This document shows, piece by piece, positions 34,956 through 60,109 of a DNA stretch of 64,000 nt (positions are counted from its first letter, which is position 1; each line of letters begins with the position of its first letter). Source of the stretch: Gammaproteobacteria bacterium (lineage in GTDB: Bacteria; Pseudomonadota; Gammaproteobacteria; Pseudomonadales; Pseudohongiellaceae); NCBI GenBank assembly GCA_050486205.1, contig JBJHCW010000008.1, forward strand, positions 5,219-69,218, written 5' to 3'. Both the position numbers and the translations under genes were made by a program. Below the pieces are notes generated by a model, which worked only from the letters and a program-made list of their open reading frames with translations, ran no database searches and had not been told where the DNA came from.

Positions 34956-36464
34956 TCAAGCTGCATGCGACCTGTGCCGGCGCCAACGCTCCACCGCCAG
35001 TTGCTGCAACAGATGCAACACATTGGCCATGGTCCAGTACAGGACCATGCCGGCGGGGAATGGGTAAAACAGCAGCAGGAAGCCCAGGGCCATGAGCACC
35101 TGAAAAAAGGTCTGCCGGCGACTGGCGGCGGCATCTGCGGCCGGGGCCGGTGACAGCTTGATGGTCGCCAGTGTGGTCAGCGCCATCAGCACCGGCATCA
35201 GATTGAACCAGGCGCCCAGCAAAGGCACATCAAAACCAAACGCAAACAGCCTGTCCGGTTCTGCCAGCGTGTCCATCCACAGAAAGTTGGCATCACGCAG
35301 CTCCCAGGCCGAGCCCAGCACGTGAAACAGAGCCACAAACACGGGAATCTGGATCATCACGATCAGCAGCGGTTTCAGGCCTGCCAGCGGGCTGACCCTG
35401 TGTGTCTTGTACAGATCCAGAATCATTTCACTCTGCTCACCGCCCTTGTACTCACGCTTGATACGCTGCAGCTCGGGCTGGATCTTCTTCTGCACTTCGG
35501 CGAATGCGGCCTGGCTCTGCAGGGCCCGCCTGGCAACCGGATACATCAGCATTCGCACCAGCACGGCCAGCAGGATAATGGCCAGGCCCCAGCTGGGCAC
35601 CAGCGCATGAATAGCGCCCAACAACCACAACAAGCCGAAACTCAGCTGCCGCATCCACTGCCAGAGGGACGGGAACAACAGGGCCTGATAATTGCTGGCC
35701 CGGGCAGTGGCGGCAAGATTGTCACGGGTCTTGGGTCCGGCAAATATCGAAAACTGCCACTCTCGCTGTTCATCGGGCGCCAGTTCAGAGGCATCCAGCA
35801 GAACACCCAACGCTGGCAGGTAACGTCCCGGCAGGCCAGGCAGCTCAGCGCTACTGCTGCGGTATCGCATGCCGATCACAGCGCCGGACAAAGGCTCCAT
35901 GGTCAGCGCGTTATAACGGCTGTGCAGGCCCGCCCACGCCGCGTCAACGTCCAATGGCTGCCATTCAGCATTGTTGTCCCCGGCCGGAAAACGGTGCAGG
36001 TCACCGTCTTGCCAGGCAAAAGGCTCAACAAAGGAATACAACCGCTCGGCTATACCCAGACCTTCTACCGGGTACTCCCCCAGGCCCGGACCGATCTGCA
36101 ACATCAGCTCGTCGCCGGGGTCCAGCGACTGTCCGCTGGTGTTGCTCAATACAAGACGGTAGAGAAAATGATGGTCGCTGACGTCGTCCGGGATCAGTTG
36201 CCAGTCAAGTGCAAGATCGCCGGAGGCGAGCAGAGCATCAAGCGCCGGACCACCCAGGCGCAGGTGATTGCTGACCGGCGTTCCATCGGGCAACTGCGTG
36301 GCGAGTAACTGCAGTGATGCGGGCAACTCATTAATGTCGGGGCCGGCCGGGGTTTGAGATGGGTTTGGAGATGGGGTTTCAGCCGGAAGCTGGGCGGTCG
36401 CAGTTGCTGCCACCAGCATCGCCAGACACAGCAGCAAGGCAGGAGATGCAAGGCGACGCTTCAA
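34956..36464 (-). CDS. YidC/Oxa1-family membrane insertase paralogue with divergent periplasmic domain
   Basis: 502-aa ORF with a signal/anchor and a roughly 250-aa periplasmic region. The 60-kDa-IMP core follows (GLAIILLAVLVRMLMYP ... IQIPVFVALFHVL ... PFPAGMVLYWTMANVLHLLQQ). Confidence 0.8.
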   Translation of the reverse strand: MKRRLASPALLLCLAMLVAATATAQLPAETPSPNPSQTPAGPDINELPASLQLLATQLPDGTPVSNHLRLGGPALDALLASGDLALDWQLIPDDVSDHHFLYRLVLSNTSGQSLDPGDELMLQIGPGLGEYPVEGLGIAERLYSFVEPFAWQDGDLHRFPAGDNNAEWQPLDVDAAWAGLHSRYNALTMEPLSGAVIGMRYRSSSAELPGLPGRYLPALGVLLDASELAPDEQREWQFSIFAGPKTRDNLAATARASNYQALLFPSLWQWMRQLSFGLLWLLGAIHALVPSWGLAIILLAVLVRMLMYPVARRALQSQAAFAEVQKKIQPELQRIKREYKGGEQSEMILDLYKTHRVSPLAGLKPLLIVMIQIPVFVALFHVLGSAWELRDANFLWMDTLAEPDRLFAFGFDVPLLGAWFNLMPVLMALTTLATIKLSPAPAADAAASRRQTFFQVLMALGFLLLFYPFPAGMVLYWTMANVLHLLQQLAVERWRRHRSHAA

Positions 36465-36524
36465 GATGCACTCCCAGGCGCTATTCCAGTCGCGTTTCCA
36501 AATGCTTTCCCGGAGTGCAAGAAC

Positions 36525-36782
36525 TCATTGCTTGCTGTCAGCGGATTCTTTTGACTCGGAGTTGCCGTTTCCGTCACTGGACTTTTTCTCCGGTTTGCGC
36601 AGACCAAGCAACTTCAGCAGTCGATGCCAGTACAGTTTTGCGGTCACTGCCAGCGCCGCAAATGCGGCCAGCACACCCTGGATGATTGCACTGCCGGTAC
36701 CCGGATCCAGGTAGGCATGTGCGTGACTGCTCAACAGCAGCGTTGCCGCCACGGCCAGCAGGGCTGTTCGGTAATGGGTCAT
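36525..36782 (-). CDS. small secreted/membrane protein, unknown function
   Basis: 85-aa ORF with a signal peptide (..SSHAHA), YLDPGTGSAIIQG, one TM and a lysine/serine-rich tail. Its location between coupled envelope genes supports coding. Confidence 0.5.
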   Translation of the reverse strand: MTHYRTALLAVAATLLLSSHAHAYLDPGTGSAIIQGVLAAFAALAVTAKLYWHRLLKLLGLRKPEKKSSDGNGNSESKESADSKQ

Positions 36783-36881
36783 TCTGTGCTCCCGTCCATT
36801 GAGCGCACAACTTTAACAGATGTATGACAGGGGTTCGACTCTCTGACATCACAAGGCCTCTTCAGAGCCGTTACAGACGCC

Positions 36882-38027
36882 TCACAGACACGACACCAGA
36901 TACGCGGCAGCAACGTTTCCACTTTTACCGCAGTGATAAATGTTCTGTTCACGCACTTGCCGGATTCTTTCAGGCCACGCCCTGTTATCCGACATCATCT
37001 GTGATGCCACCGCGCCAAGCGTGTCCAGCGCGGTCTCCGGCACAAGCTCGCCGATCTGCGTGCGAATGCTCGCTTCAAGCGGCTCAATGCCCAGCGCCTC
37101 GTACTCCGGATTCAGCACCTTGCGCGGCACGTCCACAAACAGCACCGGCCGCTCCAGGCCCAGCGCAAACTCCAGCGCAGCGCCGGACCAGTCGCTGACC
37201 ATCAGCGCTGAATCCATCAGCGTCTGTTTGCCATCGGTATTTTCATCGAGCTGGAAGCGCTCATGGCCGGAGAACTCCGCGGTGATGGCCTCCAGCACGG
37301 TCGGGTTGAGCTTGCGTGTGCGCGGATGCGGTCGCAAGACCACATTGAACCCGGCGTTGAGCAATGGACCAATCACGGCAGCGCCATGACGTTCCAGCAG
37401 GGCATGTTCGCCCCAGCTCGGTGCCACAATTATCTGATCGGGGTCGGCATCTGTTATACCTGTTGAGTCCGAACATCTGTCGGCCAGAATGCTGTCCAGA
37501 CGCCCATAACCCGCCTCCACCAACGTTTTGGCAGGCAGACCTTTGGCTTTTTCACGCGCGCGGATTTCCTGCACATGATGAGGCCCCACGCACAGCACGG
37601 CATCAAAGTGGTCAAAGGCGGCCGCGCGGTAGATCATATGAGTGCTGACCATGGAGTGATGCAGGTAGACATAGTGCACATCATGCGGGGAACGCTTGAT
37701 GTGGTAGCTGTGCAGATCCGGCATGGTCATCAGCAGTACACGCGCCTGCAGCCCGGCAAAGAACAGCGTGCGGATGCTGCCCTCACCGATGCAGAAAGGC
37801 ACCAACCCTCGTGGTGGATCGATGCGCAGTGGATCATCCGGGTCTGATGTCACATAAAGAACTGTCTCGCCATGCGTGTCGCGAAGCGCACGAAACACCG
37901 GCTCGAAGTGGGTCCAGTAGCCTCGCCCTTCCGAATAGATGACGATGCGCCGCTGTTGCACCGGCACCGCAAGAAAGCGCCGGTATTCGGCACGCTCCTG
38001 CCGCAGTCGTTTCAACCAGGCAAACAT
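36882..38027 (-). CDS. CDP-glycerol glycerophosphotransferase (TagB/TagF)-family transferase
   Basis: Family motifs IIVAPSWGE, VVLRPHPRT and LMVSDWSGAALEFALGLERPVLFVD. ATG 38025-38027 overlaps the upstream stop by 1 nt (TGATG). The ORF-track extension to 38120 is rejected. Confidence 0.75.
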   Translation of the reverse strand: MFAWLKRLRQERAEYRRFLAVPVQQRRIVIYSEGRGYWTHFEPVFRALRDTHGETVLYVTSDPDDPLRIDPPRGLVPFCIGEGSIRTLFFAGLQARVLLMTMPDLHSYHIKRSPHDVHYVYLHHSMVSTHMIYRAAAFDHFDAVLCVGPHHVQEIRAREKAKGLPAKTLVEAGYGRLDSILADRCSDSTGITDADPDQIIVAPSWGEHALLERHGAAVIGPLLNAGFNVVLRPHPRTRKLNPTVLEAITAEFSGHERFQLDENTDGKQTLMDSALMVSDWSGAALEFALGLERPVLFVDVPRKVLNPEYEALGIEPLEASIRTQIGELVPETALDTLGAVASQMMSDNRAWPERIRQVREQNIYHCGKSGNVAAAYLVSCL

Positions 38028-38809
38028 CAGTCTTCCAGCCGCATGAAACGCTGAAGACTGCCTTCGGCCTGCAGGCGATGAAAGTGCTCCAGGTCCTGCG
38101 CTGTATCCACCTCCAGCCAACCATTGTCGGTGAAGGCGGCGCGCGCCTCCCAGCCAGCGTCGATCAGATACTGCAGAAAGCTGGTCATGTACATATTGTC
38201 GAAATCCTTGCCGTCATACTGCGCCTGCCTGTCCATTGCGTGGTATACCTGGCGCAGTGCCGCCACCTTGTCAGCACGCACTTTCAGCAGCCCCATATAC
38301 TGGCCCTGGATGTCCTCGTAGCCACGGGGCTTCTGGCCCAGCTCCACAATACGCGAGCCGTCCTGAAGCCTGAGTGTTTCCGCATCACTCAATGGGTCGT
38401 CCATGCGCGCCTGCCAGAAACTGCGCCACTGTCGGTCAACAGCAATACACAGCGGGGCCTGGCATTGCAGCACAGCCTGCAGCACGCGCGGTTCATAGAT
38501 GATGTCGGCGTAGCTGATCAGCAGGTCCTGCTCATCATCCATCCACGACTCGGCGCAGAACAGTGTGCTGACCATATTGGTCTCGGCGTATCGCGGGTTC
38601 AGTACCAGCTGCGCATCCTGAAGCTCGAGCCTGTCGCTACGGTAACCACCGACCACCACAGTATCTGTGATACCTGCTGCTTTTATGGTATCCAGCTGTC
38701 GATGAAGCAATGGCACGCCGTGCAGCGCCACCATGCACTTTGGCCTGTCGTTGGTATAGGGACGCAGTCGACTGCCCTGTCCGGCCGCAAGTATGATTAC
38801 GCGCATCAT
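38027..38809 (-). CDS. LicC/Cj1416-type nucleotidyl(cytidylyl)transferase
   Basis: 260-aa ORF with the G-loop ILAAGQGSRLRPYTNDRPKCMV, LLISYADIIY and NMYMTSFLQ. Its ATG overlaps the upstream stop (ATGA 38806-38809). Confidence 0.8.
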   Translation of the reverse strand: MMRVIILAAGQGSRLRPYTNDRPKCMVALHGVPLLHRQLDTIKAAGITDTVVVGGYRSDRLELQDAQLVLNPRYAETNMVSTLFCAESWMDDEQDLLISYADIIYEPRVLQAVLQCQAPLCIAVDRQWRSFWQARMDDPLSDAETLRLQDGSRIVELGQKPRGYEDIQGQYMGLLKVRADKVAALRQVYHAMDRQAQYDGKDFDNMYMTSFLQYLIDAGWEARAAFTDNGWLEVDTAQDLEHFHRLQAEGSLQRFMRLED

Positions 38810-39441
38810 GCGCTCCTGAACAAGGTATCCATCAAGGTGATATCATTTTTATGAAATGGCAGTTCGCGCTCCGGATGCCACATGATGCCAACCCAGGGCA
38901 GATCACTGTGGCTGACGGCTTCCACACTGCTATCGTGGGAGGCTTGTGCACAAATCGTCAACTCCCCGGCAATATCCTGCGCCAACATGCCAAGATTGTG
39001 GTAGCTGTTGACTTCGCGGTGGTTCATGAACAGTGTGTCGCCGGCACGCACCTGCAAGACATGGCGCGTCGCCACATGCCCGCCCAGCTCACGCAGCGAG
39101 CCACCCAGCACACAATTCATCAGCTGCATGCCCCGGCAGACACCCAGCACCGGCAGGCTGCGGCTACGCGCCCATTGCAACAGCAACTGTTCAGTGGCAT
39201 CACGCTCAGGCGCAGGATTCTTCGGGTCCGGCAGATCCGCCAGATCGTTGCCACCACTGAGAATCAGACCTGACACCTGCTGCCGCTCAATCCATGGCAA
39301 CACCCGTTTCAGGTCATTGGGCACCGGCACAACATCAAAACCTGCGGTCTCCAGCAGTACCGACCACTGCTGATCCAGGCAATCACGGCGTTCGCCGTAG
39401 TCGGGCACAAGTTCCACGCGTTGGGTGATGGCTATTTTCAT
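38806..39441 (-). CDS. class I glutamine amidotransferase-like / peptidase C26 gamma-glutamyl hydrolase
   Basis: About 211-aa ORF with nucleophile elbow VLGVCRGMQLMN and GIMWHPE histidine. The start (ATG 39441 or GTG 39444) overlaps the upstream stop. Confidence 0.8.
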   Translation of the reverse strand: MKIAITQRVELVPDYGERRDCLDQQWSVLLETAGFDVVPVPNDLKRVLPWIERQQVSGLILSGGNDLADLPDPKNPAPERDATEQLLLQWARSRSLPVLGVCRGMQLMNCVLGGSLRELGGHVATRHVLQVRAGDTLFMNHREVNSYHNLGMLAQDIAGELTICAQASHDSSVEAVSHSDLPWVGIMWHPERELPFHKNDITLMDTLFRSA

Positions 39442-42400
39442 CACAGGCTCCCCAGTATTCGCCGGTTGACCGGATCCAGCACCAGCGTTGAGGCGCCGCT
39501 GAGCTGCGCGTAACGCGCCTCGCCCACCCCAATGGCCGCTGGCAGGCCAAACTCGGCCGCACGAATTGCCATATGTGAATTGGCGCCGCCGTACATCGTG
39601 ACCAGCCCCGCAATGCCCTGGCCGAACAACCAGTCGTAACCGGGGTCAGCCTGGGGCACCAGCACAATACAGCCGCGGGTCTGCTGATGTGTTGCTGCCG
39701 GATCCAGCTCGATGCACGGCGCGGTAACCGGTGTTGCGCCTACAAAATTCGGTTGGGCCGCCGGATAACGGAATACCGCAAAGTCCGACGCCGCGCTGAT
39801 CAACGGCGGCAATTCAATGGCTCGTGCCTGATGACGCCAGTGTGCACCTTCGCGCGCCCGCACGGCAAGCCAGGCCGCCGTGTCACCGGTGGCAGCACTG
39901 CCGCTGGCAACGGCAAAAATGTCTTCAATGGCAATATTGGACAGCGCTTCCCTGTCCAGTCCCTGCTGCTGACCCCACTGGGCCAGCAACTCAAGCGCCA
40001 TGGAAAGGTTACGGGTAAACAGGAACTTGGCGTATTCGCGACCCTCAATGGCCGTGCGCATGAACTGCTCCACCGCCGCGCCTGCCTGTTTCTCACACAA
40101 ACCGGCCGCTTGCATGGCCTGCGTGAAATCGTTTCGTGCAGCGGCCCATACCTTGCCGGCTGTGCCGCCCTGCCCGGTCGGTTCGGTGGATGCAGCGGCA
40201 ACCACCGGCGCCAGATAACGCTGCGGATCGCTGGCATAACAGTCCGCCGTGATGTCATAGGTACCGGGGCGCAGATGCCCATAACGTTGCACAAATGCCT
40301 GCCATGACAACTCACCGCTGGCGCACAGGCGTGCATCGTCGGAGAGGCGATGGCTCACGGTGCGGATGCCGGCCATGAAATCGTCCATGGCAGCGCTGCT
40401 GATCACGTTCTGCGCCACGGCCGAACGCAGCAGGGCAGCGGCGATGAAGCCGCTGCGCGCCAGGTGGGCAAAAGGCAATACCCCGTGCTCACGCGCGTCA
40501 GCCAGCAACAGCCTCACCCGTTCCAGCGCCGGTGTATCGGCATTGAGGCATTCATCGAAGCGCCGCGTCAGTGTATGGGTGCGGTCAAGATCCTGTTGCG
40601 GGCGCTTCAGGGCGTTTCGGGTAATGTTGAGCAATGAGTGGTGCAGGGTGTCGATCTCTGACGGTGAAAACCCACCCTGGGTCAGGCGCTGGCGCCAGCG
40701 ATCAAAGTCCAGCGCCACGCAGGTGGGCACCACGTCAAATTCCACCTTGTCGTGCAAGGTCGGATTGGCCAGCAACCAGTCAAGACAGAAATCCACCAGC
40801 CTGCCAGCAAGCCCGGCATCAATGTCTGCCGGTACAAAAGAGTTAAAGCTGGCACGCACATCCACATAGGGGTGACCGGCGAAGCTGCGCAGCAGAGGCG
40901 TGGGGCGCAGATCGCGATAGCCGTATTCTGCCCGCTGCCTGGCCCAGCTGTCGTCGGTGACCAGGTAACGATACAGACTGAGGGCCAGGCGTCCTGGTCG
41001 GGTACCGATGATTTCTGCCGGATTCCAGTCCGGCATCAGACCAAACACCGCACGCTGGCCCAGCACCGGAAAGAGTGGCCGCTGAAGGTCATGAAACTGC
41101 TGTTCGGCCTGGTGCAACCATGAGTGGGTATCCGGTTCACTGACGCTCAGTGCGGCGTGATCCACTGCAATCGGGCGCACCTGCAGGATGTGAACCTGCG
41201 ACCGGGCAGCAATGGCAAACTCCACGTCCAGTGAATCGTAGTCAAGCAGGGTCTCGATTTCCTGCAGTGCCGGCACCAGCGGTGCAATCGCCGCAGGTAA
41301 CTGCGCGGCGATCTGCCCGATCCGGTCTCGCCGAATGTACACGGTCTCTTGTTCACCACGCTGACCACTGGTCACCGAACTGGTGCTGCCACTCACGGCG
41401 TCATAATTGATCACGTACCAGGGCGCGCCGTAATCCAGCGTGCGGGTGAACGCCACACCACTGACCTGCACATCGGCCACCATGGGCTGCACCAGCACCT
41501 GGTTGTCTGCATGGCCATCGGGATAGGAGGCAATGACACGATCCACGGCATCGGACACGGCGGCCCGATCCGCAGCAGGCACATCCAGCACAGATGTGTA
41601 GGCGCCGGCATTGGTGCTGGAAAATCCATCCTCGCTGAGCGCGCTGCTGCGCACCACAAGCCGGTGACTGTTGAAGGTCGCCTGCACGGCGTCCAGGGTG
41701 TCTGCCCTGGACGTTTGCCAGTCTGCCACCGTAAAGGCAATCTGATCTTCAATACGGCTCTGGCTCACCAGACCCTGCAGTCGCTGAAGTGTCTGCGCTT
41801 TGGTGCCGAGAATGAAATGGGCAAGGTCCTGGGGTTCATTCAACTCTGCCCAGTCACCTGCAAGGTCCACAGCGCCAACACTGAAACCCTGCATGCGCAA
41901 CCACTCAATCAGCGGCGACAGCTTTGCGCTGCCAAAGCGTTCGGCAACAGTGGCACGGTGTTCGCGCAGATATTTCACAACCGGTGTGGAGAAATGTACC
42001 AGGCCAACAAACTCCGCATTGGCCAGTGTCGGGTCGAGTTCGGCGCCCAGGCGGGTCACAGTGCCATGCGTCACATGTACCTTCTCACAGCGTCGGATGT
42101 CCTGCTCACTTCGCCCGGCGTATCGGCTGCGCCATTGACCGTCCACGGCAATGCTGATGTCAGCACGCGGCGCCAACAGTCGCGTCACCGCCTCACGATG
42201 GAACACAATATCGGCGTAGCACACGATGGCCGGCTGCGCGAGTGCGCGTGTGCTGGCGCCAGTGTCCGCACCATCATCAGCAAAAAGCGGAGCCATCAGC
42301 AGTGATGCGGCCGCGCCGGTATCGAGCCAGTGCTCGTTATCGGTGTAACGCAGTTGCGGGTATTGCGCCTTCACCGCTTCGCCGGCGTAACCGCAGACAA

Positions 42401-42614
42401 AATCCACCTGCCGCGCAAAGTCACTGACCGCAGCCAGCAACCAGTCCAGCACACGCTCTTTTCCATGGGCACTGGCAGCCTCGTCAATGGCGCTGCCGGG
42501 CGAATCGTCCTGGGGCGCATCCTGCAGCACACTGGGCGCCTCCCCGCGAAACGGGGGTCCGGCGCCCAGAATAATGACGGTCCGTTCTGTCAAGGCAATC
42601 CGATCAGTCAACAT
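39441..42614 (-). CDS. PEP-utilising-enzyme-family kinase (ATP-grasp PPDK_N plus C-terminal swivel-His domain) with N-terminal degenerate nucleotidyltransferase domain
   Basis: 1057 aa from ATG 42614. It has LVVRSSALSEDG (ATP-grasp) and the extreme C-terminal GGANSHMAIRAAEFGLPAAIGV (phosphohistidine swivel), with no TIM-barrel PEP domain. The N-terminal 290 aa are paralogous to the neighbouring cytidylyltransferase. Confidence 0.8.
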   Translation of the reverse strand: MLTDRIALTERTVIILGAGPPFRGEAPSVLQDAPQDDSPGSAIDEAASAHGKERVLDWLLAAVSDFARQVDFVCGYAGEAVKAQYPQLRYTDNEHWLDTGAAASLLMAPLFADDGADTGASTRALAQPAIVCYADIVFHREAVTRLLAPRADISIAVDGQWRSRYAGRSEQDIRRCEKVHVTHGTVTRLGAELDPTLANAEFVGLVHFSTPVVKYLREHRATVAERFGSAKLSPLIEWLRMQGFSVGAVDLAGDWAELNEPQDLAHFILGTKAQTLQRLQGLVSQSRIEDQIAFTVADWQTSRADTLDAVQATFNSHRLVVRSSALSEDGFSSTNAGAYTSVLDVPAADRAAVSDAVDRVIASYPDGHADNQVLVQPMVADVQVSGVAFTRTLDYGAPWYVINYDAVSGSTSSVTSGQRGEQETVYIRRDRIGQIAAQLPAAIAPLVPALQEIETLLDYDSLDVEFAIAARSQVHILQVRPIAVDHAALSVSEPDTHSWLHQAEQQFHDLQRPLFPVLGQRAVFGLMPDWNPAEIIGTRPGRLALSLYRYLVTDDSWARQRAEYGYRDLRPTPLLRSFAGHPYVDVRASFNSFVPADIDAGLAGRLVDFCLDWLLANPTLHDKVEFDVVPTCVALDFDRWRQRLTQGGFSPSEIDTLHHSLLNITRNALKRPQQDLDRTHTLTRRFDECLNADTPALERVRLLLADAREHGVLPFAHLARSGFIAAALLRSAVAQNVISSAAMDDFMAGIRTVSHRLSDDARLCASGELSWQAFVQRYGHLRPGTYDITADCYASDPQRYLAPVVAAASTEPTGQGGTAGKVWAAARNDFTQAMQAAGLCEKQAGAAVEQFMRTAIEGREYAKFLFTRNLSMALELLAQWGQQQGLDREALSNIAIEDIFAVASGSAATGDTAAWLAVRAREGAHWRHQARAIELPPLISAASDFAVFRYPAAQPNFVGATPVTAPCIELDPAATHQQTRGCIVLVPQADPGYDWLFGQGIAGLVTMYGGANSHMAIRAAEFGLPAAIGVGEARYAQLSGASTLVLDPVNRRILGSL

Positions 42615-45348
42615 AGTCGATGACCATCTCGTCGGCGCGCAGGCCGAGGCTGCGTGTGTCAGGCGACATACCCAGGTCAGCCGGGGCCAGCGGATCACTG
42701 ATGTTCAGTTGCACGCGCAGCACGTCCTGTCCTTCAATGACCCGGGCCGGCAACAACGCCTGATACCAGTCGGATTCACTGAGCTGCCATTGATCGATTT
42801 CATTGTCATTGACATAAAGTGTGACCTGCTGCTGTGCGAGTACGTCATCCCCCAGAAAAGGCCGGGCAAGCAGGCGCAGTGCCATATCACGCCCCGCGGC
42901 AACAGGTTCGTCCAGTGCAATCTCCAGTACAGCAATTTCGCCGTCGGTCCAGCGATGTGTCGGTTCGGCCAGCGCCCAACCCTCACGTACAAACCGGTCA
43001 GCCTGTGCGCCTTCGGCGAACAGCAGGCTGTCACCGGGTGTATAGAGCGGCAGCGGCTCCAGACGTAGCTGATGCAGGAAGATGCCAAGACGCCTGTCAT
43101 CGGTGCCAGCAAGGTGTTCCACCTGAGACACGGCATCGGGCAACTCCAGCACCACATTCAGACTGCTGGCATTGCCACGAATTGCCTCACTGATCTCCAG
43201 TTCATACCAGCGCGACTCACTGACCACCCAGTCTGCAACGTGCTCACCGTCAATGCGGACATGCACGCGTTGCGCATCCACAATATCATCAATCAGAAAA
43301 GGCGCCAGTTGCATTGATATTGTGAACCGCCCCTCCACTGACTCGGCCAGCGGCAGGTTGATGATGGCGCGGCGGCCATCACTCCAGAAACCGTCACGCT
43401 CCTGCCCACTCCAGCCTGACCCCAACACCTCATGGCCGGGGCTGCCGTCATGGAATCGCAACAGCTGCCCTTCTGCCAACGGCTGGAGCCGGGCGGCCTG
43501 TGTCGGCTCTGCCACAGCCTCGCCCACCAACTGCTCCCCACTTGCCTGCCAGGACTGTGGCAGCCAGCTGTGACCCAGCACCCGGTACTCGGTCATTGCC
43601 GGCAGGTAGTCATCGGTCCAGCCGTCGAACCGGTATTGCAGGTAACGACGTTCGCGCGCCTCACTGTTGCTATAGGGCCAGTTGTCACTGAAAAGGTCAT
43701 GACCATCAAGTGCTGCCGAAGAATCCACCGTGGCCATCAGGGTGGCGGCCAGATCCGCCACCGACGCCGGCCGCTCACTGATCTGCAGCTCACCCGTGGC
43801 CCCGGGCGGCTTGAGCAGCATCAGCGCCAGTCCGGACTCATGATGACTGGATGGCAGCCGGAGCTGTTGTGGCTCGCCCAGATCCGGTGGCAGCGTTGTG
43901 GCGTTTACACCCACACCGTACTCACCACCGCCGTGCTCTGACACGATGGCAATAAAACTGTTGTTGTACACATTCAAGGCGCGTAGTTGGTCCAGAAACC
44001 GGCGCATGAGATTCAGGCTCGCCACCGAGTGCCGATAGAATCCCTCGCGGTCTATTGACATGTTTTCCATTTCCAGCGCCTCATTGAGCAGGAACGGCGC
44101 GTGGGGCACAAACAGGTGATAGAAACGAAAAGTGGGCGCACTGGCACCAACCGAGGACAAGGCCTCCATATCTTCCAGCCAACGCATACTGTCATGGGGA
44201 TGGTCGCTACGCGGGAGGTTACGCGGGAGATTGTTGCCGGCAGCAGGCCCGGCACTGTCATCACCCAGCGGCAGTTGTGTCACCCAACGGCGGGCGCGCC
44301 ATTCATGATCATTGAGCCAACGTGGTTTCAGGAAATGAGGAATGACCCTGAACAACCCCACATCCACAAATTCACCGAACGCCGCCATGCGATCGGACTC
44401 GCTGCGATCACGGACAAAATTGCTGGCCACACGCTCGTCAAAGTGGAAAGTGCGCGGAAACAACGGATGCAGGCCCACATCCCAGCCCTGGGCGAGCAGG
44501 CGCTGCGGCACCGAGCCGTCCAGATACGCGCGGCGCATGAACGACAACATGGGTTCGGTGTTCTCGTACCACTGACCGGACAACATCAGGGGAATGGAAG
44601 GGTAGGTCTTGGCATAACCGGCCAGTGTATCGCGGAACCAGGTGAAACCCTGGAAATCCTGACGGTACGCCGGCTCATTGCTGATGATTTCACCCAGCAC
44701 ATCAGACTGAAAGGCATCCAGCACCACCACGATGATGTTGCTGTCCTCCGAGTAAGTGAACTGCTCATCATCCAGCGCTGTGTAAAAGTGATGGCTTGGT
44801 GGCTGGGGCGCCTGCCGAACGGTGAAGGTCAGTCCGGCGGCCTGCACGGCCAGTAGTGCCACACACAGGGTCACGGCGTTGGCAGCAATGGCGGCGGAGA
44901 AACGCCAGGCTACAAGCATGGCGGAAAACCACACCACCAATTCGAACACGCCGTGCCAGGTGTAGTCCCGCCAGTTGATGGCACCGCCATCCAGCACACC
45001 ATAATCCTGCACCAGCAGGTTGGCCTGCAACCAGGCCGCCAGTGCAAGCATGACCAGTGTGCTGAGGGCCAGCGTACGCCATCGGGCAGCAAGTGTGTGG
45101 TTCACCAGCATGCTGGCAGCCAGGGCCAGCAAGAACAGCAGGGCGCTGAGCAGCACAACAAGCACTGCCGCAGGTGCGATCAGATCAGCCCAGGCCACAC
45201 TGAAGTCATGCACATTGCCGAAATACACGGTCAATGCCGGAAACAGCACGGCGGTGAGGACAACAGTGACCGAAGCCAGCAACATTGGCCCCGGCAACAG
45301 GGCTGCCATCCGGGTTCTGCCCGGGGATCTGTGTAATTGCTTCGGCAT
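42604..45348 (-). CDS. LtaS/sulfatase-family (alkaline-phosphatase superfamily) membrane phosphotransferase with duplicated C-terminal beta-rich domain
   Basis: It has about 5 N-terminal TM segments and a sulfatase core beginning NIIVVVLDAFQSD. Two homologous C-terminal modules of about 125 aa follow. ATG 45348 is preceded by GGGAG (the ORF-track GTG is at 45363). Confidence 0.75.
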   Translation of the reverse strand: MPKQLHRSPGRTRMAALLPGPMLLASVTVVLTAVLFPALTVYFGNVHDFSVAWADLIAPAAVLVVLLSALLFLLALAASMLVNHTLAARWRTLALSTLVMLALAAWLQANLLVQDYGVLDGGAINWRDYTWHGVFELVVWFSAMLVAWRFSAAIAANAVTLCVALLAVQAAGLTFTVRQAPQPPSHHFYTALDDEQFTYSEDSNIIVVVLDAFQSDVLGEIISNEPAYRQDFQGFTWFRDTLAGYAKTYPSIPLMLSGQWYENTEPMLSFMRRAYLDGSVPQRLLAQGWDVGLHPLFPRTFHFDERVASNFVRDRSESDRMAAFGEFVDVGLFRVIPHFLKPRWLNDHEWRARRWVTQLPLGDDSAGPAAGNNLPRNLPRSDHPHDSMRWLEDMEALSSVGASAPTFRFYHLFVPHAPFLLNEALEMENMSIDREGFYRHSVASLNLMRRFLDQLRALNVYNNSFIAIVSEHGGGEYGVGVNATTLPPDLGEPQQLRLPSSHHESGLALMLLKPPGATGELQISERPASVADLAATLMATVDSSAALDGHDLFSDNWPYSNSEARERRYLQYRFDGWTDDYLPAMTEYRVLGHSWLPQSWQASGEQLVGEAVAEPTQAARLQPLAEGQLLRFHDGSPGHEVLGSGWSGQERDGFWSDGRRAIINLPLAESVEGRFTISMQLAPFLIDDIVDAQRVHVRIDGEHVADWVVSESRWYELEISEAIRGNASSLNVVLELPDAVSQVEHLAGTDDRRLGIFLHQLRLEPLPLYTPGDSLLFAEGAQADRFVREGWALAEPTHRWTDGEIAVLEIALDEPVAAGRDMALRLLARPFLGDDVLAQQQVTLYVNDNEIDQWQLSESDWYQALLPARVIEGQDVLRVQLNISDPLAPADLGMSPDTRSLGLRADEMVIDYVD

Positions 45349-45428: not shown

Positions 45429-46958
45429 TCAATCGGGCTTCACAATCAGATTCACAGCTGTGGCGTGAAAATACAGCTCGTCCGGATTGCTGTACACACC
45501 ATAACCGAAGTAGAAATCCACTTCTATCTGCTCGATGCCTATGTCCCGGGCAACCATCTGGGTGAGCACGTCAATGTGCTCCACGGCGCCCAGCACGCGT
45601 TGCTCGTTCACCGGCACAAGCTGCACCTCGGGCTGGTACTCAACAAACTCGCCTGCGGCGTTCTTGATCAGGGTTTCACCCGCATCGGTAATGCCGGCAA
45701 TCACAATGTAGCCCGACTGGCCCTGATGGGCCGGGTCTATTTCTATACGCCCCCGCACATCAAAGGCCTGATCGGCACGCACCCGGTTGTGATAGGTCTG
45801 CCCGCCATCGGTGGTCACACCACCAAAAAAGCGCGCCTGCGACTCACCACCCTGGAAACTTTCCCGGCCGGGCAGCGTCAGCAGCTCCGGGCTCTGGTAG
45901 GTCATTGCCAGGCGATAATCACCCGTTCCCGTGCTGGAGCGGCGGCACGGCGGGTTGCTGCTGTAGGTATTGGCCAGCAACAGGTATTCACCCGCCTGAA
46001 GGTTCATGGTGATACGGGGATTACAGTTGCCCGCACTGTTTTCATCCAGGGCAATGATGTTGAGCCCGGGTTCGGTCAGCAGCAGCACACCGTCAAGTGA
46101 CATTGCCGCGTCCATCTCAACAGTCACCTGCAGATCATCGGCCAGATTCAGGCGGTAGACATCAACCAGGCTGGTGTCGGTGCCGCCGACCATGATCTGC
46201 TGCACCCGACAGGCACCCGGTTGCAGGGCGCCATCCGTCAGACCAAAACCAAGGGGCCGGTTCTCACAGTTGAATTCACCGGTATACAGTGTATCTGCCC
46301 CGGCAATATCATCATCCTGCAGGCGGAAAATGTTCCCGACACGCGAGGCCATGATGGCCGGTATGCCCGGGCCGTCCTCATGCCCCAGGCCAATGACGTG
46401 GCCGAGTTCGTGCAATGCAACCCGGCGGAAATCATATTCACGCGTAGCGTTCGGACCCGGGCGCAGCGGCCCATCGTAGACATCAAAGTTCACATTGGCG
46501 TTAAAAATCACATCCGATTCAACGATATCGACCGAACCCAGTATGTTGGCTTCACTGGAGGTGATGGTGACCGCCAGCGTGCTGCTGTTGAAGGCGTCAC
46601 CACAGACAGTGCTGGCGAAGTCAAACCCGTTTGCCCCGTCACCACCACCGCCGACAAAATTGTTGTTGCCGGTGGGGAAGTAACCAATACAGGGATTGCG
46701 GTAAGCCGGCGAGATGATGAATTCAAACGCCGTGCTGTCGGTCCACTCCTGCGCGGCATCGGCCAGCGCCGTGGACCAGGCAATGCCGCTGGGTGAAACC
46801 CCCGGCATGCCCACGTGAATGGTGGCCCTGGCGCCTGGCCATTTGGTGCCCAGGGCACTGATGTCAAAGGCCAGTGCCTTGAAGGCCAACGGCGCGCCGA
46901 GCGTGGCAAGCAATGCGGCTGCGCCCAGGCGGCGGCCTATGGTTGATACCCCGCTCAT
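45429..46958 (-). CDS. secreted metzincin-type zinc metalloprotease with pre-peptidase C-terminal-like domain
   Basis: 509-aa ORF with a signal peptide, zinc motif HELGHVIGLGHE followed by a Met-turn (PAIMAS), and a PPC-like segment (VDVYRLNL...LQAGEYLLLANTYS). Its ATG overlaps the upstream stop (ATGA). Confidence 0.78.
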   Translation of the reverse strand: MSGVSTIGRRLGAAALLATLGAPLAFKALAFDISALGTKWPGARATIHVGMPGVSPSGIAWSTALADAAQEWTDSTAFEFIISPAYRNPCIGYFPTGNNNFVGGGGDGANGFDFASTVCGDAFNSSTLAVTITSSEANILGSVDIVESDVIFNANVNFDVYDGPLRPGPNATREYDFRRVALHELGHVIGLGHEDGPGIPAIMASRVGNIFRLQDDDIAGADTLYTGEFNCENRPLGFGLTDGALQPGACRVQQIMVGGTDTSLVDVYRLNLADDLQVTVEMDAAMSLDGVLLLTEPGLNIIALDENSAGNCNPRITMNLQAGEYLLLANTYSSNPPCRRSSTGTGDYRLAMTYQSPELLTLPGRESFQGGESQARFFGGVTTDGGQTYHNRVRADQAFDVRGRIEIDPAHQGQSGYIVIAGITDAGETLIKNAAGEFVEYQPEVQLVPVNEQRVLGAVEHIDVLTQMVARDIGIEQIEVDFYFGYGVYSNPDELYFHATAVNLIVKPD

Positions 46959-47605
46959 GGCTGATCCCCGGCCCGCACCAGCTCTCGCACGGATTCCCGG
47001 AAGCTGGCAGCGCTCAGCGCGGTGCCGGCGCTGCCCAGCGACTGCACCTGCACCCCGGCGGCAGTGCCGTGACTGATACCCAGCGGCTGCGCCTGGCGCG
47101 GTGTGTTCGGGGACGGCACACTGTAAACCGGCTGGTCGTCTGCCGTGTGCACACGCTGCTCGCCGTCAGCCCACTGCTGCAGGCGGTAGTGGCCCTGTGC
47201 CCAGCCAACCAGCGGATGCACCAGATTGTCAGACAGCGATTCCACAAAATAGAAACCGGTTTCCCCGACCTCGGGCAACTGCATCTCACCCACCTGCATC
47301 ATACGGTTACCCACCTGGCCGCCAAGATACCGCAAGGTGATGGCAGACGCTGCGTAATCACCCTTGATCACATGAAGGATATCGAATTCCACAAAGCTGT
47401 GAATGGTACCCGGTCCGGTCTGGCGCGCCTCTACCGACAACACCCGTCCCTCGAAGATGAATTCGGCAGTGCCCACCACCTCCTCAAAACTCAGCTGTGC
47501 CACCGTGCTGGCCTGCGGCGCTGGCACAAAAAGGAGCAGGAGGGTGAACAGACTGGCAACAAGCAAACCTGGTGCGGTGCGGATCCATCGAAGCATGACA
47601 GTCAT
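46955..47605 (-). CDS. secreted hypothetical protein co-translated with the metalloprotease
   Basis: 216-aa ORF with a signal peptide (LLLLFVPAPQAS), 4-nt overlap with the protease gene, and no recognisable motif. Confidence 0.55.
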   Translation of the reverse strand: MTVMLRWIRTAPGLLVASLFTLLLLFVPAPQASTVAQLSFEEVVGTAEFIFEGRVLSVEARQTGPGTIHSFVEFDILHVIKGDYAASAITLRYLGGQVGNRMMQVGEMQLPEVGETGFYFVESLSDNLVHPLVGWAQGHYRLQQWADGEQRVHTADDQPVYSVPSPNTPRQAQPLGISHGTAAGVQVQSLGSAGTALSAASFRESVRELVRAGDQP

Positions 47606-53408: not shown

Positions 53409-54161
53409 CTACTGCTGCTGAATCTCGATCACCCGATCACCAAAGGGCGTGCGCACCACGCGGTAACCTTCCGGTACCTGGGAGGGATCGATACGGCGGC
53501 GCTCGAAACGCTCGGCCTGGGCGCGCATCACAGCTTCGTCCTCCGGGTTGCGTTCGCGCGCAGCACGAAGCGCGGCGGCAAAGGGGTTCTGAGGCGCTTC
53601 GGCGTTGTCGTTCCCATCACCATTTCCGGCACCATTGCCCCCACCACGACGATCACGGCGGCGCTGGGGTTGCTCGGCTTGCGGCGGCACAATGGGTGCG
53701 GCCGTCGCCACGGTCAGGCGGGCAGTATTACCGCTGCAGTTCACGCCCTTGTCCGGCGCGTCCACACAGGGCGCATTGTCGGGATGTGCAATGGACACAT
53801 TACGACTGCCGGTTTCGATGAGCCGGTATCCGGGGTGCCCGGGAACAGGCATTTCGGTACCCGGCGCACCGTTCACGGTGATGACCTGCCCGTCACGAGC
53901 CCGGATGCGTATCCGATAGTCATCACCAAACCGGCTGGTGCCAACCAGCTCAAACGCCGGGCCATTGGCCTGGGGCTGAACAGGCCGGACAGCCTGCACC
54001 TGGTTATCGGGCCGGACAGCCTGTTCCACAGGCTCAAAAAGCTGCAACTCCTGGGCGCCGGACGGCGATGACACCAGTGCCAGCAACACCAGCGCAACCA
54101 TGGCAGCGGCGGGCAGATACCAGGATCGATCAGTCCCAGGCAAGGCAGATGATCGGTTCAT
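53409..54161 (-). CDS. secreted hypothetical protein with RG/GN low-complexity linker
   Basis: 250 aa from ATG 54161 (GGGAG RBS 7 nt upstream), with a signal anchor and a central RRRDRRGGGNGAGNGDGNDN tract. No recognisable family. Confidence 0.55.
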   Translation of the reverse strand: MNRSSALPGTDRSWYLPAAAMVALVLLALVSSPSGAQELQLFEPVEQAVRPDNQVQAVRPVQPQANGPAFELVGTSRFGDDYRIRIRARDGQVITVNGAPGTEMPVPGHPGYRLIETGSRNVSIAHPDNAPCVDAPDKGVNCSGNTARLTVATAAPIVPPQAEQPQRRRDRRGGGNGAGNGDGNDNAEAPQNPFAAALRAARERNPEDEAVMRAQAERFERRRIDPSQVPEGYRVVRTPFGDRVIEIQQQ

Positions 54162-54719
54162 GACAATACTCCCGGGCAAGGTTTGCCCTATATGGCCATC
54201 AGAATAGCATACTGTTGTGTGTTGGACGCAGTGTCCGGCGCTTTGGTTCTACATCCTCATATCACGCCCGTTATCGCCGCTATCACTACCAAAGGATACC
54301 CGCACATCCTGAACATACCCTTCGATGACACCTGCCACATAGGGCCAGAAGGCTTCCTGTTCCAGGGTGCGCATGGCAAGCTCAGGCGCAACAAACCGGC
54401 TCATCTCCTGATAGAAGTCATCTTTTGTTTCACCATTGTGCCGGATTTTCGGGGGGATTACACCTGGACCAGGCCGCTGCCAAACGCCACAACAAGGCCA
54501 AATGCCCAAAGCAGACTGCTACGCTGCAGCCGTTCAGAATATCGCTCTCTCATCGTATTGCCCTCAATACTTGCCGCCAGACACTGAATTGACCCGATTC
54601 TACTGACAATCATTCAATTGGTCGCAAGTATTCCGACTTTGGTTTTTGCGCAAACATCAGATTGACACAATCGACAAGCCGGCACCTCAAATTTACACCA
54701 ACAATCAGGTGCGGAATGC

Positions 54720-55514
54720 TCAGTTCAGCTTGCCAAAATCGATGTTGCCACCATCATCATTGAGAAAGTCGAGATCCAGCGCAAGGCCTGCCGCCTTGTT
54801 CTGGGCGTCACGCCTGGCAACAAACTGCGGAATACGACCAAGAAGCTGAATATTCTGCATGGATATCAATTGGCAATAGGCCAGCTGTAAAGTGTTGGAG
54901 TGACGCAGCCGCAGAAACTGCTTGTCATCCAGGGCAATCAGTTTGTCCTCGTCAATCTTGTAAAGACCCTTGATTTCTTGCTCGCCGCTGTCCAGACGCA
55001 CCTTCAGTTTCCAGGGCACCAGCAGGCCCAGCTCATTCAGCAGATTTGCCATTTTGGCCGTTTCTATCCGCGACTTCTCTACTTTACCAAGAATTTCCAT
55101 GAGGCCTTGAACAACTTCAGTGGGTGTGCCGTCCTCATCAAAAAATGCCTGGTCTTGTTCATCACTGCTCATCAACCCGCTGGTCTCATCAAAACACAAT
55201 GCCAGCTGTCCTTCTTTCTCAGTGGGCAACATCCTGAATGGGTAGGTGCGGATGATTGCAGGTTTGTACGCACCAAGCCATTTGCCGTCATGGTCAATAA
55301 AAACGTTCTTGTCCGAACCCAGGGATGTCAGTGCCACAAGATTGAACTGATCGTCATCGGGCACAAAACACAGAGGCAGATTGATAGTAGCAGCATGCAG
55401 TTCATCGGCCACGATGGGGAGCACCTGCTCCTTGCCAAAGAGTGTATAGGAGGTATTCGGCTTCCAGAACCGGCCTTTGTGCGTTTCCTGGCTGATCACG
55501 GTGTAACGGGTCAT
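54720..55514 (-). CDS. SapC-family protein
   Basis: 264-aa ORF. The N-terminal half (HKGRFWKP...LPIVADELHAATINLPLCF...FNLVALTSL) matches my recollection of the SapC family pattern. It lies downstream of the S-layer-like gene. Confidence 0.65.
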   Translation of the reverse strand: MTRYTVISQETHKGRFWKPNTSYTLFGKEQVLPIVADELHAATINLPLCFVPDDDQFNLVALTSLGSDKNVFIDHDGKWLGAYKPAIIRTYPFRMLPTEKEGQLALCFDETSGLMSSDEQDQAFFDEDGTPTEVVQGLMEILGKVEKSRIETAKMANLLNELGLLVPWKLKVRLDSGEQEIKGLYKIDEDKLIALDDKQFLRLRHSNTLQLAYCQLISMQNIQLLGRIPQFVARRDAQNKAAGLALDLDFLNDDGGNIDFGKLN

Positions 55515-60013: not shown

Positions 60014-60109
60014 GCGGGGATTATCAAGAATTGGCCTGCTCCGTGCAACTACGATTCCCTGAAACGTGACACCGTGCAAGCACACCTGTCTATCAGGCGC
60101 TCAGCCGTG

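Follow-up and report, generated by a model that had tools for sequence, protein, structure and literature searches.

A Gammaproteobacterial Operon Joining Homologs of the Campylobacter Cytidine Diphosphoramidate Enzymes to Candidate Envelope Transferases

A 64,000-nucleotide (nt) stretch of a gammaproteobacterial genome (family Pseudohongiellaceae; contig JBJHCW010000008.1, positions 5,219 to 69,218; hereafter the window) carries seven consecutive genes, all on the minus strand at 34956–45348, as found by inspection of its open reading frames (ORFs). In order of reading they encode a sulfatase-like enzyme resembling LtaS and EptA, a kinase with a fused N-terminal domain, a C26-type hydrolase, a cytidylyltransferase, a TagF-like transferase, a small membrane protein, and a YidC paralog (Table 1). 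Judging from these sequences, we lean toward the view that the seven-gene operon serves to attach phosphoramidate (P-N) to a molecule of the cell envelope. Homology and synteny indicate that it encodes the three activities that give N-phospho-glutamine, cytidine diphosphate (CDP)-glutamine, and cytidine diphosphoramidate (CDP-amidate) in Campylobacter jejuni, where they belong to the O-methyl phosphoramidate (MeOPN) system.

P-N bonds in glycans have been treated as a rarity. The glutamine kinase was called “C. jejuni-specific” in a 2022 review (PMC9561416), and a 2014 survey kept within Campylobacter only. In a full-text search of the literature, the pathway was found discussed for Campylobacter only, apart from a structure-annotated archaeal Borg element; subscription papers lay outside that search, and earlier remarks on homologs are possible. 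Automated KO-based annotation already names some members of the kinase family “glutamine kinase.”

Results

The 260-amino acid (aa) cytidylyltransferase (Pfam NTP_transf_3) was compared directly with Cj1416, whose sequence was taken from optically recognized text of Suppl. Fig. 15 in Rice et al. 2019 (PMC6697681) and contains some letter errors. The two proteins are 41% identical over their full length (249 aligned columns, E = 1e-66, BLASTP). The canonical GXG(T/S)RX8PK-type loop is present (AAGQGSRLRPYTNDRPK), and the blocks TNMV.T.FCA, DAETL, and NMYMTSFLQ are common to both proteins but absent from LicC. LicC (1jyk) is the best sequence match in the PDB, at E = 2e-12 and over the N-terminal 86 residues only. 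On this comparison, the enzyme is considered an ortholog-level relative of Cj1416 (CTP:phosphoglutamine cytidylyltransferase).

The neighboring hydrolase matches Peptidase_C26 (87.7 bits) and also GATase in Pfam, with a Cys in GVCRGMQLMN and a His in WHPE. Among NCBIfam models it fits NF045546, gamma-glutamyl-CDP-amidate hydrolase, best (E = 2.6e-32, residues 3–202 aligned to positions 2–190 of 198), by about 19 orders of magnitude over the next family, anthranilate synthase (E = 3.6e-13); PuuD is at E = 5.6e-9. The protein is thus a candidate gamma-glutamyl-CDP-amidate hydrolase, the Cj1417 equivalent.

The large protein is 1057 aa long in the public record (P0001, 100% identical), with its start at 42614. 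It scores 857 bits against NF004508/PRK05849 (cutoff 501), a model of 789 positions named “hypothetical protein,” over residues ~262–1053, or aa 290–1081 of the ORF; the JGI label “glutamine kinase” is attached to several of its homologs. Pfam recognizes PPDK_N (ATP-grasp) and the PEP-utilizers swivel domain only, and no phosphoenolpyruvate (PEP)/pyruvate TIM barrel. The kinase body runs from the ATP-grasp domain through a helical substrate domain to a C-terminal swivel phospho-His domain, and the swivel His lies in GGANSH1014MAIRAAE (GGANSHMAIRAAEFGLPAA block), invariant in 13 homologs and 43 residues before the C terminus. Cj1418 was reportedly described by Taylor and colleagues in 2017 with an ATP-grasp, substrate domain, and swivel-His layout, and its own swivel residue, which we take to be His737 of 779 aa, would stand 42 residues before the C terminus.

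Against the PEP synthase, PPDK, prodigiosin-ligase, and rifampin-phosphotransferase models, the kinase reaches only 15–49 bits with cutoffs of 450–1700, which rules out a PEP synthase or a rifampin phosphotransferase. The AF2 model of the large protein has a pLDDT of 73.6, with the swivel domain poorly placed, and its closest solved fold is rifampin phosphotransferase (E = 5e-15, Foldseek against the PDB), as expected because no closer relative of the kinase was found in the PDB. The likeness to that enzyme (RPH-Lm, 5hv1/5fbs) lies in the ATP-grasp domain, the helical substrate-binding domain, and the swivel His, whereas the Rph hidden Markov model (HMM) gives 24 bits against a cutoff of 999 and the gene context is different.

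In size the kinase does not resemble Cj1418. Stand-alone members have ~780 aa, and the excess is due to an added N-terminal domain of ~280 aa with a nucleotidyltransferase fold. This domain is 24% identical to the stand-alone nucleotidyltransferase of the same operon (E = 8e-14) and 20% identical to Cj1416 (E = 5e-14, both BLASTP), and its closest Foldseek matches are CTP:inositol-1-P cytidylyltransferase (TMt 0.72), GlmU, RmlA, and PntC. By sequence it is a diverged paralog of the Cj1416-like enzyme. Where GxG(T/S)Rx8PK would be canonical, the phosphate loop of the domain has the form (I/V)(I/L)LGAG(K/R)P..G....RVLDW, and a Helicobacter-type member has a more canonical AAGKG...PKCL loop. The loop and the motifs YADI, D..W..R, CEK, AEF.G, and GDWAELN are conserved across phyla (13 sequences, 82 loci), which argues for function and against decay. 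The fused domain is therefore probably functional, with a role to which we assign no reaction. In a Maricaulaceae metagenome-assembled genome (MAG; L048, 9857–13795, plus strand), a 1312-aa triple fusion unites a Cj1416-like cytidylyltransferase, the diverged N-terminal domain, and the kinase; it is a Rosetta-stone link joining all three modules.

The TagF-like protein begins with a basic amphipathic helix and passes the Glyphos_transf model (PF04464) by a narrow margin (23.4 bits against a cutoff of 22.1). Its AF2 model, built with 52 homologs, is of GT-B type (pLDDT 92.3), and TagF (3l7l) ranks first in the PDB by Foldseek, also by a narrow margin (E = 3e-11, TMq 0.62). A TagF-like capsule polymerase (8qoy) ranks third, with UDP-GlcNAc 2-epimerases and WaaG close behind. 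Invariant residues are H124, H130, H234 (RPHP), SDWSG..E, and APSWG. The last motif together with RPHP and SDWSG..E aligns with APTFR, KMHP, and SDYSS..E of TarL in a profile search against the PDB (E = 0.25, not significant alone); single-sequence PDB searches gave nothing useful. The protein shares with TagF/TarF/TarL and FtaD the GT-B fold, the (A)P(S/T)(W/F), (R/K)xHP, and SD(W/Y)S(G/S) motifs, and the expected transfer of a phospho-X group from a CDP donor with release of CMP. It differs from TagF/TarF/TarL in being very distant in sequence and in consisting of a single 381-aa domain pair without polymerase extensions. The presumed CDP-amidate donor has no hydroxyl, which implies a single transfer and not polymerization.

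Several homologs of the TagF-like protein (P0258, P0260, P0270, P0272, and P0282) carry the JGI label “YidC/Oxa1 family membrane protein insertase,” which suggests a KO model trained on TagF-like/YidC-like fusions or a label carried over from the neighboring gene. The idea that the MeOPN transferases of C. jejuni are themselves TagF-like was considered and found unsupported, as one relevant paper treats “CGPTase” and the MeOPN transferase as different genes.

The first gene of the operon encodes a protein with five hydrophobic transmembrane (TM) segments within aa 23–168, a periplasmic catalytic domain (Pfam Sulfatase, 26.7 bits), and two C-terminal DUF7024-like repeats. A single-sequence PDB search gave nothing useful; a profile of 11 homologs matches phosphonate monoester hydrolase, LtaS, and sulfatases. 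Residues D216, T253, H416, H421, H477 (of SDHG), and K518 do not vary, and T253 is aligned to the nucleophile Cys of the CxPxR motif in 4upk. A true sulfatase is ruled out, the nucleophile position being Thr and not Cys/Ser-x-P-x-R. The enzyme is therefore taken, by sequence, as a Thr-nucleophile phosphotransferase of the LtaS/EptA/OpgB kind. It agrees with LtaS, EptA (MCR-1), and OpgB in the five N-terminal TM segments, the periplasmic domain, the Thr nucleophile, and the Asp/His metal ligands (SDHG), and departs from them in the two extra DUF7024-type repeats and in giving no significant single-sequence match to a solved member.

The last two genes encode membrane proteins. The larger has the layout of YidC, i.e., a signal-anchor TM1, a periplasmic domain of ~260 aa, and a five-TM core (Pfam 60KD_IMP, 131 bits). 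Its core passes TIGR03592 (147.6 bits, cutoff 84.3) and every housekeeping-YidC equivalog model scores far below cutoff (e.g., 157 against 365), and it is therefore a YidC paralog. The smaller has a signal peptide ending in AHA, a YLDPGTGS motif, one TM helix, and a basic tail, and no NCBIfam family matched it. Homologs with AY(L/I)DPG(T/S)GS, a TM helix, and YW(H/Y)(R/K) occur in ~18–20 of 82 surveyed loci, from Gamma- and Alphaproteobacteria, Acidobacteria, and SAR86.

The genes are tightly packed. The sulfatase-like and kinase genes overlap by 11 nt (ATGTTGACTGA; minus-strand reading ...GACTATGTTGACTGA), with the kinase ATG at 42614 and the upstream stop ending at 42604. Stop and start codons also overlap between the kinase and C26 genes (GTGATG; CTGTGATGAAA on the minus strand), between the C26 and nucleotidyltransferase genes (ATGA; GCATGATGCGC), and between the nucleotidyltransferase and TagF-like genes (TGATG; GACTGATGTTT). 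A gap of ~100 nt separates the TagF-like gene from that of the small membrane protein, which is followed by that of the YidC paralog. The transcription unit very probably extends downstream to include these two genes, and both stay beside the cluster in other genomes. The first gene probably starts at ATG 45348, with GGGAG in front. A consensus promoter and terminator scan of 33–48 kb gave counts equal to those of shuffled sequence and was hence uninformative.

An earlier note, written from the letters of the window, had described five overlapping genes as one unit. All five are present on the minus strand at its coordinates and the four junctions are as it described, although the unit was drawn too short, the small membrane protein and the YidC paralog being left out. 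The families it predicted (Sulfatase, PPDK_N with PEP-utilizers, Peptidase_C26/GATase, NTP_transf_3, and Glyphos_transf) were all matched, and its motifs GVCRGMQLMN, WHPE, and ILAAGQGSRLRP..PKCMV all occur in the translations. It had rightly seen the ATP-grasp domain, the C-terminal swivel His, and the missing TIM barrel of the large enzyme, and had overlooked the second nucleotidyltransferase domain fused to it.

Table 1. Predicted features of the seven-gene operon, with positions in the window
Feature	Position	Strand	Evidence
LtaS/EptA-type phosphotransferase (putative), 914 aa	42604..45348	-	Pfam Sulfatase, DUF7024, TM profile, homolog profile
N-terminal nucleotidyltransferase-fold domain of fused kinase, ~280 aa	41775..42614	-	BLASTP, Foldseek
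Cj1418-type kinase body	39441..41774	-	NF004508, Pfam PPDK_N and PEP-utilizers
Peptidase C26/class I GATase-fold hydrolase, 212 aa, candidate Cj1417 equivalent	38806..39444	-	Peptidase_C26, NF045546
LicC/PntC-family cytidylyltransferase, 260 aa	38027..38809	-	BLASTP to Cj1416, NTP_transf_3
TagF-like GT-B enzyme, 381 aa, candidate CDP-X:acceptor phosphotransferase	36882..38027	-	Glyphos_transf, AF2/Foldseek
Small membrane protein, 85 aa	36525..36782	-	Sequence; homologs in other loci
YidC/Oxa1 paralog, 502 aa	34956..36464	-	60KD_IMP, TIGR03592, TM profile

The distribution of the system was scanned in the GTDB representative set (one genome per species), in which a kinase relative was found in at least 566 species-level genomes. 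The best 80 of these belong to Alpha-, Beta-, and Gammaproteobacteria, Flavobacteriales, Acidobacteriota, Planctomycetota, Spirochaetales, Cyanobacteria, Anaerolineales, Opitutales, Bdellovibrionales, Helicobacter, and the haloarchaeon Natrarchaeobius. An exhaustive HMMER search returned 1596 clusters at 50% identity (E ≤ 1e-30); among the best 150 representatives, ~85% are ~1000–1050 aa long (fused) and ~15% are ~780–800 aa long (Cj1418-sized). Fused homologs with 50–59% identity to the window kinase were found in Pseudomonas (chlororaphis, fluorescens group, and japonica), Marinobacter, Halomonas, Legionella, Marinomonas, Natronospira, and others. With epsilonproteobacterial members the identity drops to ~35%, and a search seeded with a Helicobacter-type kinase and aimed at Campylobacter returned environmental relatives only. 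The spread across many phyla does not bear out the idea that the route is a gammaproteobacterial speciality.

Gene neighborhoods were counted in 82 loci by tblastn and ORF clustering. The kinase is present in all 82, the C26 hydrolase lies beside it in 77 (the misses are contig ends), and the Cj1416-like transferase in ~75. A TagF-like gene occurs within 10 kb of this trio in 39 loci, from at least six phyla and in several gene orders. Sulfatase-like genes were counted in 18 loci, and every complete one also has a TagF-like gene (17/17); YidC-like genes follow the TagF-like gene in 14–18. The transferase module varies among loci. In P. chlororaphis (CP027744, 35.5–46.6 kb) the gene order is that of the window, with the small protein and the YidC paralog included, and the Alphaproteobacteria Marinicaulis and Glycocaulis (L051 and L056) have these genes too, differently ordered. 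The trio of Marinobacter nauticus is embedded in the lipopolysaccharide (LPS) core (waa) locus with heptosyltransferase, Kdo/WaaP kinases, O-antigen ligase, and lipid A acyltransferase, and in Betaproteobacteria, Motiliproteus, and Anaerolineales the trio is surrounded by dTDP-aminosugar genes, along with DegT and an AsnB-like gene. The two closest relatives, a Pseudomonadota MAG and a Pseudohongiellaceae MAG (L003 and L004; kinase identity 54–57%), share the entire layout, from rmlACD, the secreted metalloprotease, and the 216-aa secreted protein to rep.

Other partners recur in this sample. A formyltransferase-fold protein (Formyl_trans_N, 25–26 bits; e.g., L001 17561–18931 and L079 4935–5765) was found in 30 of the 82 loci, where it co-occurs with the TagF-like gene, and in seven loci it has a partner of ~140 aa; neither occurs in the window or in its two closest relatives. 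A Sulfotransfer_3 protein was found in 11 loci of Marinobacter type (L002, L013, and nine others), inside LPS core loci and in the place of the TagF-like gene, just downstream of the trio and on the opposite strand. By analogy it may be the transferase of these loci, as a 3′-phosphoadenosine-5′-phosphosulfate-type fold beside a CDP-amidate pathway recalls the 3′-phospho-CDP-amidate donor of Campylobacter. The haloarchaeon Natrarchaeobius oligotrophus (L037) has the trio in the bacterial order, with a fused kinase of 45% identity beside the genes for the C26 hydrolase and the Cj1416-like enzyme, which suggests inter-domain transfer.

The remainder of the window consists of housekeeping and signaling genes (tkt, gap, pgk, fba, ahcY, metF, amtB, rep, and GGDEF-EAL), GC content over the region is even (0.57–0.61), and the locus is chromosomal and not an obvious island. 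Directly upstream of the operon and on the same strand are a 509-aa secreted matrixin-type zinc metalloprotease (45429–46958, minus strand; HELGHVIGLGHE) and a 216-aa secreted protein without family (46955–47605, minus strand), kept at that place in no loci but those of the two closest relatives. Metalloproteases are classically inhibited by phosphoramidates, but the metalloprotease beside a phosphoramidate-type operon is probably just synteny. The rmlACD genes adjoin the cluster. Upstream of them, an 895-aa ORF and a 256-aa ORF, both without a Pfam or NCBIfam match, adjoin a SapC-family gene and a GT2 gene (positions for the group 55628–58315, 53409–54179, and 54720–55514, all on the minus strand), and none of these genes is conserved among the 82 related loci. 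Genes for a TPR protein, a CHASE2-adenylate/guanylate cyclase, and a FecR-domain protein stand in a row at 58625–63570 (minus strand), which looks like a signaling module, and a HipA-family toxin kinase gene (HipA_C and Couple_hipA; 15450–16775, minus strand) lies among central-metabolism genes.

Discussion

The trio of the window resembles the MeOPN system of C. jejuni in that the kinase (Cj1418, EC 2.7.3.13), hydrolase (Cj1417), and cytidylyltransferase (Cj1416) are homologous, adjacent, and in the same order, and in the kinase architecture of ATP-grasp and swivel His without a TIM barrel. By homology, the kinase body would use ATP and its swivel His to phosphorylate L-glutamine at the amide nitrogen, the Cj1416-like enzyme would convert N-phospho-glutamine and CTP to CDP-L-glutamine, and the C26 hydrolase would remove glutamate to leave CDP-amidate. 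In contrast to Campylobacter, the window kinase bears the extra conserved N-terminal domain, and the neighborhood contains neither a Cj1415 3′-kinase nor the Cj1419/1420 methyltransferases. The trio is instead joined to the TagF-like, LtaS/EptA-like, YidC-like, and small membrane proteins, the operon lies outside a kps capsule locus, and the system occurs in many phyla. We rate as new the kinase architecture, the transferase modules, the absence of the 3′-kinase and methylation steps, and the far wider distribution; the core chemistry would be the same as in Campylobacter.

The TagF-like enzyme would then use CDP-amidate directly, releasing CMP and, on the cytoplasmic face, passing the phosphoramidate on to a hydroxyl of an acceptor bound to the membrane, possibly a lipid-linked glycan or a glycerolipid. 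Direct use is proposed because there is no 3′-kinase in the window and none was recognized among the recurrent neighbor families examined. No adenylylsulfate-kinase-type P-loop was found in the six frames of the window, and no Pfam family of CysC-like kinases or S-adenosylmethionine-dependent methyltransferases among its scanned ORFs of at least 180 aa, as the earlier note had also concluded. A precedent for phospho-X transfer to a sugar out of a CDP donor that is neither CDP-glycerol nor CDP-ribitol is FtaD of Clostridioides difficile, which moves phospho-N-methylthreonine from a CDP donor to GlcNAc (bioRxiv 10.64898/2026.02.12.704994).

The LtaS/EptA-type enzyme, the YidC paralog, and the small membrane protein may form a periplasmic half of the system, whose most likely role would be to move the group on from a lipid donor to its final acceptor, which could be LPS, a periplasmic glucan, or a polysaccharide. 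Enzymes of the LtaS/EptA/OpgB kind work on the periplasmic side, drawing a phospho-head group from a membrane lipid. A lipid relay, with cytoplasmic loading, translocation, and periplasmic re-transfer, fits the gene content and is speculative; it is suggested because sulfatase-like genes occur only with TagF-like genes and because LtaS/EptA-type enzymes use lipid donors. The YidC paralog and the procoat-like small protein could belong to the translocation or re-transfer step; alternatively, the YidC paralog may simply insert the small membrane protein. In its fullest form, that of a widespread envelope phosphoramidate trait in which the TagF-like enzyme loads a lipid carrier, the YidC paralog and the small protein aid the crossing, and the EptA/LtaS-type enzyme installs the group, the proposal is doubtful. 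Phosphoramide substituents have been reported on the LPS cores of Xanthomonas campestris and Shewanella MR-4. By analogy with these and with the Marinobacter context, the LPS core is our best guess for the acceptor; nothing points to the S-layer anchor that the earlier note had put forward.

Several observations weigh against an operon that makes and transfers CDP-amidate. The C26 protein scores 112.5 bits against NF045546, below the equivalog cutoff of 250, and the identity of NF004508 with the Cj1418 family is an inference from model length, architecture, and JGI names. The second conserved nucleotidyltransferase domain is superfluous to the proposed scheme. By sequence the TagF assignment is marginal (23.4 bits and profile E = 0.25), generic GT-B folds score nearly as well, and half of the 82 loci have no TagF-like gene at all. 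A 3′-kinase and methyltransferases could also sit elsewhere in the genome, of which 64 kb was examined. What the earlier note had said of the trio, i.e., that it is homologous to Cj1418, Cj1417, and Cj1416, holds through the direct Cj1416 comparison, the best-family HMMs, and the near-universal synteny, and falls short for the C26 protein at its cutoff. Its identification of the flanking enzyme as TagF-like agrees with the Glyphos_transf match, the top Foldseek rank, and the TarL motif alignment, and that of a preceding polytopic LtaS-type phosphotransferase with the five TM segments, the Thr nucleophile, and the homolog profile. The groupings it had named as contrary to its proposal were not found, since the kinase stays at 24–49 bits against cutoffs of 850–1700 for PEP synthases and rifampin phosphotransferases, and the C26 protein is far closer to NF045546 than to PuuD.

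The kinase might act on another amide or amine in place of free L-glutamine, so that the TagF-like enzyme receives another CDP-phospho-X and the N-terminal domain activates a second substrate. This is unlikely. The conserved fused domain without an explanation, the C26 score below the Cj1417 equivalog cutoff, and the low identity to the epsilonproteobacterial kinases are all compatible with it, yet there is a counterpart for each of the three Campylobacter steps, the three genes travel together, and the Cj1416 relative is similar over its full length and has the family motifs TNMV.T.FCA and NMYMTSFLQ that LicC lacks. A gamma-glutamyl hydrolase would, moreover, be pointless without a glutamyl intermediate. 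It seems quite unlikely that the CDP-amidate pathway instead feeds an ordinary MeOPN-type route, with a Cj1415-like kinase, methyltransferases, and Cj1421/22-type transferases encoded elsewhere and the TagF-like and LtaS-like proteins engaged in an unrelated, glycerophosphate-type job. The small part of the genome in view leaves room for such genes, and the trio without a TagF-like gene in half of the surveyed loci means that this gene is not strictly needed. The TagF-like gene is, however, translationally coupled to the cytidylyltransferase gene (TGATG) and recurs within 10 kb of the trio across phyla and gene orders, and reciprocal clustering of neighbor ORFs gave no kinase family among those recurrent clusters that were annotated and examined.

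Two further alternatives depart from CDP-amidate transfer to the envelope altogether. A conventional teichoic-acid-like, glycerophosphate, or phosphocholine decoration (LicC, TagF, and LtaS), with the PEP-utilizing enzyme and the C26 protein in unrelated metabolism, is very improbable, even though LicC is the best solved relative of the small cytidylyltransferase, the TagF and LtaS families normally handle glycerol phosphate, and automated annotations name the big protein “choline kinase.” The cytidylyltransferase is far nearer to Cj1416 than to LicC, no CDP-glycerol (TagD/GpsA) or choline-uptake genes are found in the operon, and the kinase and C26 genes are translationally coupled within the unit. 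There is likewise very little to be expected of a trio that yields a soluble phosphoramidate metabolite or antibiotic. P-N natural products exist (PMC6429109), and the secreted metalloprotease gene just upstream in this lineage might be seen in that light; against this, the protease is kept in just the two closest relatives, membrane and glycan enzymes (TagF-like, LtaS-like, YidC-like, waa, and O-antigen sugar genes) make up the conserved partners, and no peptide ligases, nonribosomal peptide synthetases, or exporters recur.

The homologous three-enzyme module, mostly with the fused kinase, is found in Proteobacteria, Bacteroidota, Acidobacteriota, Planctomycetota, Spirochaetota, Cyanobacteria, Verrucomicrobiota, Chloroflexota, and a haloarchaeon. 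If transfer of CDP-amidate to the envelope is indeed its purpose, phosphoramidate would be a common and unrecognized envelope modification, by which charge, phage receptors, and immune or plant recognition could be affected, and the 3′-phosphorylation and methylation of Campylobacter would be optional add-ons. The operon would also provide candidate genes for the orphan phosphoramide groups on the LPS cores of Xanthomonas and Shewanella, and the Pseudomonas chlororaphis/fluorescens group and Marinobacter would be genetically tractable test hosts. Should the lipid carrier be real as well, the system would include a lipid-linked P-N donor of a new kind and would give a YidC-family protein a new function.

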